DNA from: a virus | Taxonomy: Duplodnaviria > Heunggongvirae > Uroviricota > Caudoviricetes | Length of the DNA: 42,961 bases | IMG/VR virus record: IMGVR_UViG_2531839476_000018 | Reading direction: 5' to 3' (one strand) | Part shown: one piece after another, positions 2,877-8,440 of the stretch | Position numbering within the stretch: the first letter of the stretch is position 1 | How the letters are laid out: each line of letters opens with the position of its first letter | The notes under the pieces: model-generated | Told to the model about the DNA's origin: nothing | The model's input: only the letters and a program-made list of their open reading frames with translations | Databases searched by the model: none | Made by a program: the position numbers and the translations under genes

Positions 2877-3763
2877 TATTTAGCCCTCACCAGAAAGTTA
2901 AATGCAATATTTCGTGGACGGGTTTCTGTACCTACATTTTCACTAATTTCACCATAACGTTTAACACTACGAGAGCTAATAGCTCGTAGTGAGGAAGGCA
3001 CATTAAGACCGGGTTCGTCCGTTTTAACTATTCCCCCGTCACCATATGTAGCCAGTATTCCTGGGTTTACTCCTTCCCGTGCACTTCCTGCGGCAAGCCC
3101 GTCCCCCGTCCACAATTCCATATTGTGTGCATGATCCATAATTGTGTGTGATTGCCCTGAAAGTAGGGTACGTCCGACATCAATCCCGCGCCCGTCATCC
3201 CAGATACGAATGAAATCACCGCGTGCGTCAGGTAATGCCAGAGCCGGAAACACTTTCGCCAGCACAGGGTAATCAGTGGCAGAGAATTTCGCGCCGTTGA
3301 ACTTCAAAAACACCATACCGGACCAGCTATCGATTACGGTATCTGGCATTGCAGCGGACGGCCAGAAGAACGGAACGCCAATAGCTGGAGCTCCTTCTCC
3401 CAAACCAAGGTTTTCGAGAGCCGTTTCCACCGTGCCATCCGATTTGATATCACCAAACGGATTCTTGCGGCTCAGGTATTCAACAGCAAACCCCGATCCC
3501 AGCAATTCAACAAAACCGGGCAGATCACCATTATCAAGCACATCCCGTTGCGTTTTGTCACTTACAAACTGGGCCAGAGCTGCAGCAATAAAGCTGGCCT
3601 GCCGAATAACCTTATTGACTTGCGCACTGGATGCTTTCCCTGCTGTAAATCCGGATAAAAGCGCAGGCAACGCTTCCCATTCCTCCTGCGACATAACATT
3701 GGCATTCCGATCAGTTGCAAACGCTTTAAAGTCATTTTTCGCCATCAGAGTAATACTCCCCAT
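2876..3763 (-). CDS. Tail fibre protein (constant N-terminus about residues 1-115, variable C-terminus inside the invertible segment)
   Basis: 295-aa ORF with a fibre-like N-terminus ([30 protein letters not shown]...); the crossover site lies in-frame at the codons for LENLGLGEG. Confidence 0.75.
3395..3420. repeat. hix/gix-like recombination site (left boundary, inside the tail-fibre gene)
   Basis: ttctcccaaaccaaggttttcgagag, inverted relative to the site at 1460-1485. Confidence 0.7.
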
Positions 3764-3767
3764 GCCC

Positions 3768-4424
3768 CTACATCAAAACCACTGATGAATTCGTTATCCA
3801 TATCAAAACCAAAAATTTTGAACCTTCCGATGGGGTTTCCACCGAAGGTGTTTCAATGCCACCCGCCCATACCCCGGCGGCTTTTACTGTGAGATACCCC
3901 TGTTTAATTGCCGCAATTAACTCACGCGATACATCTGAAATATCAGTATCAGGAAAGACCCAGACCGATATCGTCATGTCATGGTTATCGACTATCTGCA
4001 TTCGCAGTCCGGATCCTGCTGTTGCCGCGTCAAGAATTGCCGGAAGCGAATCATTCCGTCCGTCCCAGTTATTAATCGCAATCTTCGCTTTAAGGATGAC
4101 ACGATAAGTTTCATCGCTGAGGTACATGTATCCGGAATCAGGATCGTATGGCCCCTGCCATACACCCTGATCATATCCAAGCCCGTCGGTATCCCAGCTG
4201 AAATAGACACCTGAAATAGGCTGGCTGACAACACGGCTACGTCCGATCCACAATCCCAGAATGTCAAGTTGCACACCAACCGCAGAGTCAATATCAAATG
4301 CAGTAATCAGCCCTCTGGTGGCAGCCGCAACATCAATAAGCGGCCGGGTCATCAGATCAACATGTGCAAGAAATTTAGGTTTGGTGGCGTGGTAGTTTGT
4401 GATTAGTTCGGTGTATTTGCTCAT
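3768..4424 (-). CDS. Baseplate / tail protein (P2 gpI-like or Mu gp48-like position)
   Basis: 218-aa ORF between the baseplate J-like gene and the tail fibre; the family call rests on position and recollection. Confidence 0.5.
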
Positions 4425-5620
4425 GACTCCACCGTTATAACGATATTTTCCGGGGTACAGGACGCAGATTCGTTGTATCTGATATCAATGTTTGATGACG
4501 ACAAAGCCCCCGGGGATTTCCCAATCGTCAGTTCCTGAATATCGTAATAGCGTGCATTCCCGCCACTCACCACGCCAAGATTCGCCGGTGAGTAAATGCG
4601 ACTTAAAAGGACCGAATCACCGATCGTAAGACTATTGATATAGTCGGAAATAGCCTGCTGGATCTGCTGCCCTATCTGTGAGGTATAACCCGTAAAAACT
4701 TTTAATTTAATCCGGGCATAAACAGGCACATCACTGGAACGCGAGAATTTGATTACATGGGGATTGCCGTATTTATCCGGAACCGTAACGGATGTTGTAC
4801 CGTGAGTGGCTGTCCCCTGGCCTTTATTTCCTCTGATAGCCTGAGCAATATCCGTTACATCACCGCCATCCACAATTACAGCAACAGAGTGTGGCGGTAA
4901 CCCGTTACCGTCCTCCGAACCAGTATCGTTTTCATAGAGTTTGTGGCGGGTTACACCGGTAACATTAGAAACAGCACCATCCAGTGCTTCAAATGGGGTT
5001 ATTGATGGCAACGCAACACTTTGCGACTGGCGGATACGTAACTCCGCATCAGTTTCTGCTGGAGTGCCTACAGTAGCTGCAGCAGGATTGGTTACCGAAA
5101 CCCAGCCACGGGTTGGCGTATTAATTTCAGTGATAGTTCCAGCCAGCGCCGCCACTGCACCACTGACGGAACATTTTGCGGTCACCATCACTGTACCATC
5201 CACGCCGACCACCACTGAAGCAGGCAAACGCCATATCACATTATTACTGTCTTTCACGCTGCCATTAATGATGGTTGTTCCGGCAGTTCCTGTAAGAAGC
5301 AAATCAACCGTAGAATTCGTCGCGCCTTTACGTGAAATACCATTTATTTTCACGTTACTGGTCAGTGCAGCCCCATAGCCGGTTGCCGGTGAAAAACAGT
5401 TGTAGACAGTTATCGCCATATTATTGACATCATGAATCGCCAGCGCCATCAGAGCCACCATCTGGCCGTCTTTGCTGTCCGGTTCGAGGTAGGCATCACT
5501 GCCATAAATCTGCTGAAAATAGCTAATCAGGGTGCTGAGTATCGTCTGATAATCAGGCGCACTGATCCCCTCCGCGGTTACCTTTGCAGATAAACCGAGA
5601 GAATCAAGGTTCAGAGCCAT
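4421..5620 (-). CDS. Baseplate J-like protein
   Basis: 399 aa; position and sequence character of the Baseplate_J family (MALNLDSLGLSAKVTAEGISAPDYQTILS...). Confidence 0.7.
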   Translation of the reverse strand: MALNLDSLGLSAKVTAEGISAPDYQTILSTLISYFQQIYGSDAYLEPDSKDGQMVALMALAIHDVNNMAITVYNCFSPATGYGAALTSNVKINGISRKGATNSTVDLLLTGTAGTTIINGSVKDSNNVIWRLPASVVVGVDGTVMVTAKCSVSGAVAALAGTITEINTPTRGWVSVTNPAAATVGTPAETDAELRIRQSQSVALPSITPFEALDGAVSNVTGVTRHKLYENDTGSEDGNGLPPHSVAVIVDGGDVTDIAQAIRGNKGQGTATHGTTSVTVPDKYGNPHVIKFSRSSDVPVYARIKLKVFTGYTSQIGQQIQQAISDYINSLTIGDSVLLSRIYSPANLGVVSGGNARYYDIQELTIGKSPGALSSSNIDIRYNESASCTPENIVITVES

Positions 5621-5973
5621 TACGCCTCCGATGTAACAGTCGTTATTCCATAGAGAGTGTCGATTTCAGCGGAAAACATGACACGTCGGGTCGTGGTATC
5701 CACCGTCGTATTGAAAGAGAGGATTGATTTAACGCCCTGCGTTTCCAGAATGCGCTTACGGATCGCCAGGTTGTAGGTTTCCGGCTTCTGCTTACCGAGT
5801 ACGGACTGGATCCACGGAGTCCCCTCGGTGGTGTCGAGAAACCATTGCCCATACCACAATTCGAATCGAGTTTTTACCGCCTGCGCCACGGCCTCCGGTG
5901 AGTTAATCAGCCAAGTGTCATCACCGCTGCCAAAGGTGTAATCGCCATCGGCGTCTTCACGTCTGTATCGCAT
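5620..5973 (-). CDS. Baseplate wedge protein (gpW / gp25-like)
   Basis: 117 aa, between the spike and J genes, start overlapping the upstream stop. Confidence 0.55.
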   Translation of the reverse strand: MRYRREDADGDYTFGSGDDTWLINSPEAVAQAVKTRFELWYGQWFLDTTEGTPWIQSVLGKQKPETYNLAIRKRILETQGVKSILSFNTTVDTTTRRVMFSAEIDTLYGITTVTSEA

Positions 5974-6725
5974 CAGTTTACTCCGTCGGTATTGCTTCCA
6001 CCGCGCTGAACACCACCATGAGTGTGCGTATCATCGATTGGCTTGCCGTTAGCCTTCACGCTACCCAAAAACTCAACAGCACCAGTGATTTTTGAAGCCA
6101 CACCAGAAACAACAGACCCCACCATGCCTCCCATCCAGGTTAACAGGCCATGAATGGTTACTTTCTCAGAAAAATCAGCCAGAGGGGCAACCACATCAAG
6201 GCCCCCCGGAGCGACAATTTTAATTTTCCTGGTATCAGGATTAAGCTCAAAATAGGTGCTGCCGTCATCACTACGCAACTGTGTGGCACTGGTATTAATA
6301 CCGCTAATCTTCCTTGCCTGCGACTGGGGACCGACAATACAAAACGCATCCGATAAATCATGCATTCTGTCATCGACCGGCTCCTGTATCCCGCCACTCT
6401 GCCACCAGAAATCAATACAACGATCGGCAAAAATCACCAAACATTCATCACCGGCTTTAACTGGAAACGTTAGCGTACAGCCTCCGCCACGCGGGAATAC
6501 CACTGGCACATCCACCAGCAATGGGTAATTTTTGGTAATGCGGTTGCCGTCGTTATCAATTTCAACGTAACGGATAGCAGGCTGTACAACCGCCGTCACC
6601 GCATCAGGAGCGAATGACTGAACAATGCCAGGCAAGGCGACACGGATCTGGTTCTTTGTTGTTTCCCGTTCAGATTTAAATGTTTCGGCAAGGTCGCCGC
6701 TGCGGGTCTGGTCAGATACTGCCAT
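5973..6725 (-). CDS. Baseplate spike / assembly protein V-like
   Basis: 250 aa with an OB-fold-like N-terminus and a glycine-rich C-terminal tip (HTHGGVQRGGSNTDG); GGAG ribosome-binding site. Confidence 0.6.
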   Translation of the reverse strand: MAVSDQTRSGDLAETFKSERETTKNQIRVALPGIVQSFAPDAVTAVVQPAIRYVEIDNDGNRITKNYPLLVDVPVVFPRGGGCTLTFPVKAGDECLVIFADRCIDFWWQSGGIQEPVDDRMHDLSDAFCIVGPQSQARKISGINTSATQLRSDDGSTYFELNPDTRKIKIVAPGGLDVVAPLADFSEKVTIHGLLTWMGGMVGSVVSGVASKITGAVEFLGSVKANGKPIDDTHTHGGVQRGGSNTDGVN

Positions 6726-6740: not shown

Positions 6741-6770
6741 AAGCAAAAAACCCGCCAAGTGGCGGGTTTG
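6741..6770 (-). terminator. Intrinsic terminator downstream of the 6790-7949 cassette (could also act on the plus strand)
   Basis: Stem cccgcc / ggcggg (6751-6766, loop aagt); on the minus strand it is followed by UUUUUUGCUUU. Confidence 0.65.
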
Positions 6771-6789
6771 AATTTTGAGAAATTTCAGC

Positions 6790-7218
6790 TTATGCAGTTA
6801 ACGAGTCATCACCAATCTTCAGTAATTGATTAACGATTGCATCGACCTCTTCCGCATCCAGAATTACACTTCTCGCGGTAATCCGGTTGATTTTCCGCTC
6901 AAGCTTGTAATCAGAATTAACACGTTGGGCATGCGTCATTTTCAGTTTAACGCCGATTTTCTTTACTGCGTTAACATCAACATCGTTAAGTGCAGCTGCC
7001 TCACCACTACAAAAGGCCGTATAGACTCGCATGTGAACTCCACCTTTTAGTTTTTCACCATCTTGTGTAGCGGTCGGTACCAGATTGTTGGTGATCCGTA
7101 AGGCGGAATGGTACATACCATAGTATGCTCGGCTAATAGCATTTCTCGTCCACATCTCACCGTTTAGAGCCAGGGAATGCTTAGCCAATTCAAGAAAACA
7201 GGTATGCTCAACCGACAT
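6790..7218 (-). CDS. Hypothetical protein, candidate HEPN-like domain (cargo gene B)
   Basis: 142 aa; contains R-x6-H (RAYYGMYH) after an N-terminal helix, compatible with the HEPN Rx4-6H signature; start overlaps the stop of the upstream gene (TAATG). Confidence 0.4.
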   Translation of the reverse strand: MSVEHTCFLELAKHSLALNGEMWTRNAISRAYYGMYHSALRITNNLVPTATQDGEKLKGGVHMRVYTAFCSGEAAALNDVDVNAVKKIGVKLKMTHAQRVNSDYKLERKINRITARSVILDAEEVDAIVNQLLKIGDDSLTA

Positions 7219-7949
7219 TAGAGTTCCCCGGCTTCAAAGCATCCGACGCATTCTGAATCCGCAAGCCCCGCAATAATAATCTCATCAGCCAAGGCATTAT
7301 TCATCTGCGAAAGAAGCACTGGATCGTCTGTTTTGACTTCAACGAACAGCGTATCAAGTTCTGACATTACATAAAAAGCATGAGCGCCAGCAAGACGAGC
7401 GCGGTACTTTTCTGCAACGTTCATCATGAGCCGCCCAATAGTTTTTAGCTCCTGAGCATGATCTTTTTGGGTATGCAGATAATTGAGCGTGTCATACCAT
7501 TTGCCCATATCTTCAGGGCGCGGCACTTCCATTGCAGTTAGCATCGGCATCACCTTTTCAAGCAAATCGATATCAACCCAGTATGCAGAAATTGTAGCAA
7601 CCTCAGCCAATATCGTTGGATTAAGTGAATCAGATGCTTTCTGAATCATCACATACTGGCGAGCATGCAAACCTAAGTTACGCAGCGCAATCGTATAGTT
7701 ACAAAAAGAAACTGGATCGTTAGGCGCTATTCTCAACCCCCGCTCACAGAGTGAACATCCTTCATCTATTTCACCAAGAACAAGCTTAGCTAAGCCTTCA
7801 ATTGATAGCCCCTGATAACGTTCAGGTAGTTTCTTCGCTTCACGAATGATTCGATGGATTTCAAACTCACTCAGAAGGTTTTCACCCTTAGTTAATGAAG
7901 GAGTCAGAAGATCTAACAGTTCTCCTGATTTTGGCTGCGCTAAGCTCAT
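7218..7949 (-). CDS. Hypothetical protein (cargo gene A), translationally coupled to gene B
   Basis: 243-aa alpha-helical ORF; weak GLS-x11-EIDE motif near the N-terminus could be a degenerate nucleotidyltransferase signature (speculative). Confidence 0.35.
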   Translation of the reverse strand: MSLAQPKSGELLDLLTPSLTKGENLLSEFEIHRIIREAKKLPERYQGLSIEGLAKLVLGEIDEGCSLCERGLRIAPNDPVSFCNYTIALRNLGLHARQYVMIQKASDSLNPTILAEVATISAYWVDIDLLEKVMPMLTAMEVPRPEDMGKWYDTLNYLHTQKDHAQELKTIGRLMMNVAEKYRARLAGAHAFYVMSELDTLFVEVKTDDPVLLSQMNNALADEIIIAGLADSECVGCFEAGEL

Positions 7950-8035
7950 GTTTTAGTTATTCCTGGCTTTAATGAAGTAGCATATCGATGGCAATCCACC
8001 ATCAAAAAGTCAGTGCAGTGTAATCGCTCGTCTCA

Positions 8036-8073
8036 AAAAACAACAGTTTTTAGAGCACATTTTGTTGTTTTTC
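8036..8073 (-). terminator. Weak AU-rich hairpin, possible terminator after the lipoprotein gene
   Basis: acaaca / tgttgt stem with a 15-nt loop followed by a T-run on the minus strand; lies in the 150-bp gap upstream of the cassette. Confidence 0.3.
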
Positions 8074-8098
8074 AGGCGTTACGAATTTCAGGTTACCT

Positions 8099-8440
8099 TC
8101 ACCCAGCCACTTTTTTACAAGGGAAAGATCCGATGATTTTCGGCGCATCCATGCTGTTCTGCAGAAGCTGGACATTCAGGAATCGCGTTTCGGTACCAGG
8201 GCGACGAATGTATTCAAAGCCGTAGTTGTTACCGTCTTTGGCAGGCATAAGCCCCATGTCTACTTTCAAACCATTGGTACCCAGTTCGGTGATTTTTTGA
8301 GAGGTAACTCTTTCACCGTTGATAGTCGATAACTCGCCCTGGTTTGCAACCATAGTGTAGCCACCGCATTTAACCGTGAAGCCATCCGCCCACGCGCTGC
8401 ACGCAGAAAAGACAGCTAACAGAAAAATAATACCCCTCAT
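8099..8440 (-). CDS. Small secreted protein or lipoprotein (cargo in the tail operon)
   Basis: 113 aa with an N-terminal signal peptide MRGIIFLLAVFSACSAWA and a lipobox-like FSAC; no virion-protein features. Confidence 0.55.
   Translation of the reverse strand: MRGIIFLLAVFSACSAWADGFTVKCGGYTMVANQGELSTINGERVTSQKITELGTNGLKVDMGLMPAKDGNNYGFEYIRRPGTETRFLNVQLLQNSMDAPKIIGSFPCKKVAG

Follow-up and report, generated by a model that had tools for sequence, protein, structure and literature searches.

The locus described here raises the question of what two small, coupled genes are doing in the middle of a phage baseplate operon. The genes, referred to as A and B, lie on the minus strand of the IMG/VR virus record IMGVR_UViG_2531839476_000018, between a gene encoding a conserved protein of 113 amino acids (aa) and a conserved baseplate spike gene; the window denotes the whole stretch of DNA that was analyzed (42,961 nucleotides, nt), and L numbers denote individual loci. 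The comparison with related prophages revealed that this slot is a cargo hotspot and that the pair is an inserted, exchangeable cassette (a 'moron'), a unit moving between different prophages. Gene B has a HEPN fold and is placed in the AF0298/UPF0332 (PF05168) branch, and gene A is, according to its structural model, a TPR-like solenoid with a small C-terminal alpha/beta domain. This combination points, with some preference over other functions, to a module that acts in the lysogen against incoming phages.

A cargo slot in the baseplate operon

The features on which the argument rests are the following (positions in the window).

7218..7949, minus strand: gene A, 243 aa, modeled as a TPR-like solenoid plus a small C-terminal domain
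6790..7218, minus strand: gene B, 142 aa, with a minimal HEPN fold, AF0298/UPF0332 type (PF05168, 'HEPN-T')
6770..8102, no strand: exchangeable cargo segment, flanked by the 113-aa gene and by the spike gene and delimited by pairwise blastn against L002-L006
6738..6769, minus strand: intrinsic terminator (GC-rich stem of 9 bp, tetraloop, T-tract); the hairpin proper is at 6748-6769
7950..8098, minus strand: upstream spacer of 149 bp, cargo-specific, with an AT-rich hairpin at ~8035-8073
8099..8440, minus strand: 113-aa gene, the conserved upstream anchor; the N-terminus of its product, MRGIIFLLAVFSAC, is signal-peptide or lipobox-like
5973..6725, minus strand: P2 gpV-like baseplate spike gene, the conserved downstream anchor (TIGR01644 phage_P2_V, 4e-8; membrane-puncturing spike protein in RefSeq)

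An earlier note, made from the letters of this DNA, had described two translationally coupled genes at 7218-7949 and 6790-7218, and both coordinates were confirmed. The stop codon of A (TAA) and the start codon of B (ATG) overlap as TAATG, with base 7218 common to both, within CTCTAATGTCG. The GC content of the cassette is 40–46%, compared with 49–57% in its flanks.

While the flanks were matched by 316 of the 5,426 complete E. coli genomes, the window cassette was present in just 32–33 of these. Of the copies in E. coli, 28 were at least 99% identical to the window and five were 88% identical, always with both genes together. In pairwise blastn comparisons with related prophages, homology broke at 6769/6770 and at 8103-8112, which means that the variable segment starts just past the stop codon of the 113-aa gene and reaches up to the terminator hairpin at its 5' edge. 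The comparison of syntenic prophages that the earlier note had proposed thus revealed a variable slot with several other occupants. Instead of the pair, L003 carries a YafO-family toxin (PF13957, 4e-17) with a 190-aa upstream partner, L004 a DUF4282 membrane protein, L002 (Escherichia phage vB_EcoM-606R2; 5887-6399, minus strand) a 170-aa protein with the stretch IRNNLFHG, Salmonella phage SEN34 a 138-aa protein, and Yersinia phage YP3 a 266-aa protein. L005 and L006 harbor diverged alleles of A and B (30–31% identity for A, 37–48% for B) within flanks that are ~95% identical. The same type of hairpin closes every cargo of the slot. Between its conserved anchor genes, the cassette is either present or replaced, as is characteristic of a moron in a hotspot. 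No description of this baseplate hotspot was found in the searchable literature, although other journals could hold one.

Two further observations concern the occupants of the slot. The 170-aa protein of L002 gave no sequence match in Pfam, PADLOC or the PDB; its IRNNLFHG is a canonical-looking R-x4-H with the usual polar residue before it, and the protein may be a second, unrelated HEPN-like cargo. In L005, which has a different upstream gene, a 75-nt stretch (3622-3696) between this gene and the cargo is a remnant of the window-type 113-aa gene, matching its 3' end (window 8099-8173) at 93% identity; it looks like a recombination scar of cargo or flank exchange.

The strong hairpin with a U-tract that had been noted after the pair was borne out as an intrinsic terminator. 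Its letters are AAACCCGCC-ACTT-GGCGGGTTT, followed by TTTGCTTTCT; the hairpin starts 20 nt 3' of the stop codon of B, and the terminator ends 16 nt ahead of the start codon of the spike gene (6725). Folding of the hairpin gave -15.7 kcal/mol (z = -4.3), with 0 of 200 shuffles as good, and the pattern CCCGCC-N3-6-GGCGGGT occurred once in the 43-kb window compared with 0 expected occurrences. The hairpin at 6748-6769 thereby provides the cassette with a terminator of its own, which is another trait of moron or cargo cassettes. The upstream region of ~150 bp with a weak hairpin, also described earlier, corresponds to the 149-bp spacer. Its AT-rich hairpin is indeed weak, with a 17-nt loop and a fold of -8.2 kcal/mol (z = -2.1), and it is weaker still in the Citrobacter and Pseudocitrobacter copies, where a T-to-C change is not compensated. 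Because of the weak fold and this uncompensated change, with no compensatory conservation, the spacer hairpin was dropped as a functional element.

The CCCGCC-N4-GGCGGGT hairpin with its T-run has a wider distribution than the slot. It was also present at L008 6455-6472, at L009 6435-6452 and 7391-7408, at L012 6435-6452, at L021 3408-3425, at L027 4432-4449 and at L023 2935-2952. In unrelated prophages, it closes the TPR+HEPN pair, and it likewise closes neighboring morons, namely the pRha gene (L009-L011), DUF551 (L007) and the SEN34 cargo gene. Cargo variants lose homology to each other exactly where the hairpin begins on its 5' side, and the shared element may be both a terminator and a joint for cargo exchange.

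The HEPN protein, its TPR partner and their distribution

A direct search of Pfam and NCBIfam with the window proteins A and B gave nothing above threshold. Early pointers for B were weak, i.e., a PADLOC match to HEPN_IX (E 0.009) and the name 'UPF0332 family' given by JGI to some homologues. Equally weak was the match of the L005 allele of B to PF05168 (E 0.017), and a close-family profile searched against the PDB had AF0298 (2hsb) as its lone match, with a merely suggestive E of 0.11. The link between B and PF05168 became significant only once the family was widened beyond the close relatives. For this purpose, 1.84 billion cluster representatives were searched with a profile at a cut-off of E <= 1e-3, which yielded a wider B family of 1,144 cluster representatives. 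Among 56 sampled members, 17 matched PF05168 (best, 7.8e-7) and one matched HepT-like_2 weakly (0.0053). A profile of the 56 members matched two solved structures, 9xbd ('HEPN domain-containing protein', 1.5e-11) and 2hsb (2.5e-6). The closest structural relatives of B are AF0298, TT1696, ST0689 and sacsin.

HEPN domains carry an Rx4-6H motif where helix 3 ends, and an Ex3[KR] motif in helix 2 is proximal to the active site (PMC3710099). In the PF05168 'HEPN-T' family, typified by AF0298, the H of the motif is often a D, and a second conserved H, situated in an insert between helices 2 and 3 and shared by AF0298-like and AbiV HEPN domains, could complete an alternative active site (PMC3710099). 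In the model of B, helix 2 comprises residues 21-43 and helix 3 residues 82-104, and the conserved positions are encoded as follows.

7144..7158, minus strand: codons of E21-x3-R25 (E21-MWT-R25, Ex3[KR]) at the start of helix 2; both residues invariant in 56 diverse members
7108..7131, minus strand: codons of R30-AYYGMY-H37, the helix-2 signature of PF05168-type HEPN proteins; R30 and H37 at least 90% conserved in the family
7033..7035, minus strand: codon of H62, the candidate 'alternative' catalytic His in the insert between helices 2 and 3; at least 90% conserved among the 56 members
6907..6924, minus strand: codons of R99-V-N-S-D103-Y104 at the end of helix 3; R99, D103 and Y104 invariant in the 56 members

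The earlier note had regarded the small protein as HEPN-like on account of an Rx6H in RAYYGMYH. These letters are present at residues 30-37 and the HEPN fold stands, but R30-H37 does not serve as its signature, given that it lies in the middle of helix 2 and not at the end of helix 3; on this position, RAYYGMYH was rejected as the catalytic Rx6H. It aligns to STAYYAMFHAA of AF0298 and to SRAYYAMFYIA of 9xbd, where R or H is replaced, and it is well conserved within the TPR-associated subfamily. We infer a structural or interface role for R30 and H37. Where helix 3 of B ends, the Rx4-6H motif is absent, with D103 in place of the His, which is the known deviation of the AF0298 type; the R99-D103-Y104 stretch aligns to LRNRSDY of 9xbd and LREESDY of 2hsb, and H62 aligns with the insert His of 9xbd (SSHS).

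The two best solved relatives, 9xbd and 9xbc, differ by a Y to F change in the R-x-S-D-Y motif, which suggests that their depositors deem this Tyr (Y104 in B) functionally critical. Literature searches found no paper describing the two structures.

The model of A (pLDDT 90.5) comprises ten helices over residues 7-181 and a beta-beta-alpha-beta unit over residues 186-240. The earlier proposal that A is a degenerate nucleotidyltransferase did not hold against this TPR solenoid. In known pairs, the HEPN partner is a minimal nucleotidyltransferase (MNT) with a GSx10DxD motif and a Pol-beta-like fold (PMC13000451). The letters behind the proposal, G47-L-S49 and E60-I-D-E63, are present in A; among 26 A homologues, however, the G-L-S of YQGLSIEGL was conserved but the E-I-D-E positions were not, and no GSx10DxD motif was found.

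In the slot of YP3 (L022 2454-3254, minus strand), a single gene encodes the 266-aa protein, which is related to A over its full length, though distantly (hmmsearch 5.7e-7; hhalign probability 71%, E 3.6e-5), and no HEPN gene follows it. The protein may represent an orphan partner, perhaps a phage-borne anti-toxin.

With regard to the distribution of the pair, an A-like gene of 236-270 aa was located directly 5' of B in all 19 individually inspected loci and in all 43 IMG/VR loci that could be evaluated; many of the 43 carry the same allele. The junction between A and B ranged from -11 to +14 nt in 15 pairs, and the four B motifs were retained down to ~30% identity. A was always the more diverged of the two, with identities for A and B of 41 versus 55%, 31 versus 48% and 27 versus 38%. 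A close-family search of species genomes found related loci only in Citrobacter braakii, Pseudocitrobacter and Yokenella, and a B homologue was present in just 3 of 50,697 sequenced phage records.

The same baseplate slot holds the pair in L013-L015. In other tail regions, it adjoins a pRha gene in another myovirus tail cluster (L007, L009-L011), lies in lambda-like tail operons (L008, L019), or is found 5' of the tape-measure gene, adjoining a YafO pair (L017, L018), with a Fic gene nearby in L017. It was also detected in an antirepressor moron cluster (L026), and the morons beside it across loci are Fic, YafO, KilA-N, pRha and Bro-N. Further copies directly follow a CI/S24 repressor gene of the same strand orientation (L021, L071) or adjoin integrases where prophages end (L020, L072). 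Klebsiella phage Chronis has the pair in its nin-like region (L027), and a P2-like Vibrio phage has it in the interval from gpA to the portal gene (L028); in P2, the gpA-gpQ interval is the old/tin defense hotspot (Rousset et al., PMC9122126). Two copies reside in chromosomal islets without phage genes (L012, L025). Because of this distribution, which is as expected for a lysogenic-conversion or defense cassette, a structural role was excluded.

The YafO toxin gene comes after a gene for a protein of 190–198 aa of unknown function at L003 2369-3359 (minus strand) and at L017 and L018 1121-2118 (plus strand). TPR+HEPN and YafO cassettes appear to share hotspots.

Possible functions of the cassette

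On the basis of context, we cautiously favor the view that the mobile A+B cassette is a lysogen-borne, toxin–antitoxin (TA)-like module for abortive infection or superinfection exclusion. The use of the slot by a YafO toxin pair as an alternative occupant counts in its favor, and the positions 3' of cI and beside integrases argue for expression in the lysogen. As in type II TA systems, the pair consists of two small co-transcribed genes with the partner 5' and a tight or overlapping junction.

According to the mechanism that we propose, A and B would be made at a fixed stoichiometry through translational coupling and would form a putative complex, in which the TPR protein keeps B inactive. A HEPN dimer of B would be the RNA-targeting effector, using the AF0298-type site, and A may also sense a protein of the incoming phage by way of a TPR surface that evolves fast. 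HEPN activity would then be freed by infection or when the partner is lost, and would lead to translation arrest, to the benefit of the lysogen. By halting transcripts that are not antiterminated before the spike gene, the terminator would keep lysogenic transcription within the cassette. Q antiterminators modify late transcription so that it reads through terminators, and an antiterminator Q family protein is encoded 5' of the lysis and structural genes of this prophage. Q-modified late transcription would thus continue through the terminator into the spike and baseplate genes.

Several results weigh against the function that we favor. The canonical catalytic His is absent from B, where D103 takes its place, and our literature search found RNase activity of AF0298-type HEPN proteins only as a prediction (PMC3710099), with no demonstration. 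Matches to PADLOC-DB 2.0 were weak for B, i.e., HEPN_IX for the window protein and for the L006 allele (1.6e-4) and PDC-M05B for the L005 allele (0.021); A matched just PDC-M71B (0.037), its diverged alleles matched nothing, and neither protein had a significant match to any system model of this database. Unlike classical type II antitoxins, A is larger than B and has no DNA-binding domain: library searches and the fold revealed no helix-turn-helix, ribbon-helix-helix or AbrB domain. The presence of an A-like gene alone in YP3 indicates that A may have a function of its own. Furthermore, the 149-bp spacer contains no sigma-70-like promoter site matching at least 8 of 12 consensus positions, and expression of the window allele in the lysogen is thus no more than presumed. 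The earlier description of the pair as an autonomous insertion therefore stands as far as exchangeable cargo is concerned, given the homology breaks and the alternative occupants, but not for 'autonomous' expression. Promoter-like sites matching 9 of 12 consensus positions were present 5' of the pair in other alleles (L006, L007, L009).

The sites of L007 (~5182-5210) and L009 (~5176-5204) consist of TTGAAA-17-TAAACT/TACACT, with a palindrome inside the promoter spacer. The letters of the palindrome differ between the two loci (ATTGCC...GGCAAT versus ATTACCC...GGGTAAT) while palindromy is kept, which suggests an operator. The window spacer has no equivalent of this palindromic site.

Among the alternatives, it is conceivable, though unlikely, that B is a non-catalytic ligand- or RNA-binding module which, together with A, serves the phage itself, either as a counter-defense sponge or decoy or as a regulator of lysogeny or late expression. 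The replacement of the canonical His by Asp agrees with this possibility, and B has been likened here to sacsin or nucleotidyltransferase-associated HEPN proteins, no demonstrated nuclease activity having been found for its closest relatives AF0298, TT1696, ST0689 and sacsin; the strict conservation of E21, R25, H62, R99, D103 and Y104 at the alternative active site proposed in PMC3710099 nevertheless speaks against a non-catalytic protein. As for the time of expression, the operon that contains the window cassette is a late one and the cassette itself showed no promoter, so that expression may occur mainly in lytic growth, and YP3, where the A-like gene stands alone, is a lytically propagated phage. 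The copies 3' of cI and beside integrases, which speak for expression in the lysogen, and the YafO toxin pair in the same slot argue in the other direction. We give somewhat less credence still to a selfish addiction module, which would act by post-segregational killing, stabilizing the prophage or hopping between hotspots, with no role in phage defense. Such a module would be consistent with the coupled two-gene architecture, with the copies in non-phage islets (L012, L025), and with the fact that B was never found without A in ~60 loci whereas an A-like gene can stand alone. The pair occurs, however, mostly in prophage accessory hotspots known for defense genes, and the rapid divergence of A fits an arms race more readily, although both are possible.

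Two other explanations have become very improbable. A role in tail or baseplate assembly, or as minor constituents of the virion, was suggested by the location of the pair within tail gene clusters in the window and in L008, L009, L013, L017 and L019. Most relatives with the same baseplate genes nevertheless lack the pair, which was found in tail clusters of both myoviruses and siphoviruses as well as next to int, 3' of cI, within nin-like regions and in non-phage islets, and B homologues are scarce among the sequenced phage records (3 of 50,697); on this distribution, a virion or assembly role was rejected. Even less credible is a type VII MNT-HEPN pair of the MntA/HepT kind, with A as a degenerate nucleotidyltransferase that AMPylates B. 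The order of partner and HEPN gene with overlapping stop and start codons would suit it, and the invariant Y104 beside a conserved Arg is reminiscent of the AMPylated Tyr of HepT (PMC13000451), yet A as an MNT or other nucleotidyltransferase is refuted by its fold, by profile and by the lack of motif conservation.

The likeness of the pair to the type VII system HepT/MntA is accordingly one of gene order, and the difference is that A is not a nucleotidyltransferase. HepT belongs to the DUF86 class, with an R-phi-xxxHxY (RxxxxHxY) motif, while B has RVNSDY and is not a DUF86 protein. Neutralization by AMPylation is not expected for the pair, because its partner is not a nucleotidyltransferase and B does not have RxxxxHxY. 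By fold and motifs, B shares the branch of the AF0298/UPF0332-type HEPN proteins (PF05168; 2hsb, 9xbd, 1ufb, 1wol). These are typically standalone, or paired or fused with MNT nucleotidyltransferases (PMC3710099), whereas the invariable partner of B is a TPR protein of ~245 aa; in contrast to AF0298-type proteins, the TPR+HEPN pair is carried by prophages of enterobacteria and, in some cases, Vibrio. AbiV of Lactococcus is grouped with AF0298-type HEPN-T proteins for the alternative conserved His in the same position (PMC3710099) and has reported RNase activity on rRNA (bioRxiv 10.1101/2024.05.05.592566). Its structural similarity to B is weak (9bj7, Foldseek E 1.9), and its antitoxin is reportedly an RNA, unlike the TPR protein that is the candidate antitoxin of the pair. 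A comparative-genomic precedent for a HEPN protein coupled to a TPR-like repeat protein is provided by AbiU2 with Sel1 and LA2681 with TPR (Table 1 of PMC3710099). AbiU2 and LA2681 belong to other HEPN families in which Rx4-6H is conserved, no homology to B or A was detected, and we found no mechanistic characterization of these operons.

HEPN proteins in an accessory position of temperate phages are likewise represented by HepS of Gifsy-1 (PMC13043305) and by Tha/Ith of S. aureus phages (PMC11087260). Both HepS (R100-H105) and Tha (R265-H270) have the canonical RX4-6H, their sequences are unrelated to B, and their triggers, which are tail proteins, are known. Ith, a second phage protein, restrains the HEPN RNase Tha and thereby avoids autoimmunity (PMC11087260), and gene A might, as a working analogy, be compared with it. 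HepS is nevertheless a single gene and Ith is small and encoded antisense, while A is a co-translated TPR protein. With regard to the site, the P2 old/tin locus (gpA-gpQ, PMC9122126) is of the same kind, a small high-turnover locus between conserved genes with alternative accessory systems; in contrast to it, the hotspot of the window is part of the baseplate operon in a SEN34-like myovirus.

A bolder version of the abortive-infection function is possible, although we would not yet expect it to prove right in full. The pair would represent an undescribed, widespread prophage-borne abortive-infection family, in which TPR replaces MNT as the keeper of HEPN-T and also senses a phage protein directly, and in which the non-canonical site (R99/D103/Y104 with H62 and E21/R25) is a working RNase center, which would be the first function demonstrated for this HEPN branch. 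Grouped at 50% identity, the B family numbers more than 1,000 clusters, and no description of a TPR protein paired with an AF0298-type HEPN was found in the searchable literature, other journals being able to hold one. The novelty lies in the type of partner that accompanies a putative HEPN effector in a prophage hotspot; the general idea is already familiar. If the module is defensive, it would assign a function to the AF0298/UPF0332 HEPN branch, for which activity has been predicted since 2013 and no demonstration was found. A defensive cassette would be a compact, two-gene addition to prophage-encoded immunity, and the baseplate hotspot, like those of P2/P4 before it, could be a place to look for further systems. 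Given the fast-evolving TPR partner and the slower HEPN protein, the trigger is directly testable through escape mutants.

The surrounding prophage

A prophage of E. coli O55:H7 DEC5E (L001), integrated between yfhL and yfhH, matches the region with 100% identity. This prophage is a myovirus and kin to Salmonella phage SEN34 (Brunovirus) and Yersinia phage YP3. The genes 5' of the cassette encode, in order, the tape measure, a baseplate protein, the plug, a 353-aa hub-like protein and the 113-aa protein. On the 3' side follow the P2 gpV-like spike gene, a 117-aa gene, the equivalent of which bears the annotation sheath initiator in related prophages, and the genes for baseplate J, a DUF2612 wedge protein and tail fibers with an invertase.

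RefSeq annotates the pinE invertase of the identical DEC5E prophage as frameshifted (window ~850-1400; L001 2949-3505) and the DUF2612 wedge gene as having an internal stop (window 3744-4424; L001 5845-6525). The open reading frame of the wedge gene in the window stops 24 nt before the annotated end, and the prophage may be partly defective. Finally, at window ~900-2900, two opposed tail-fiber assembly genes adjoin the Pin-type invertase, forming a Mu/P1-like invertible host-range segment.

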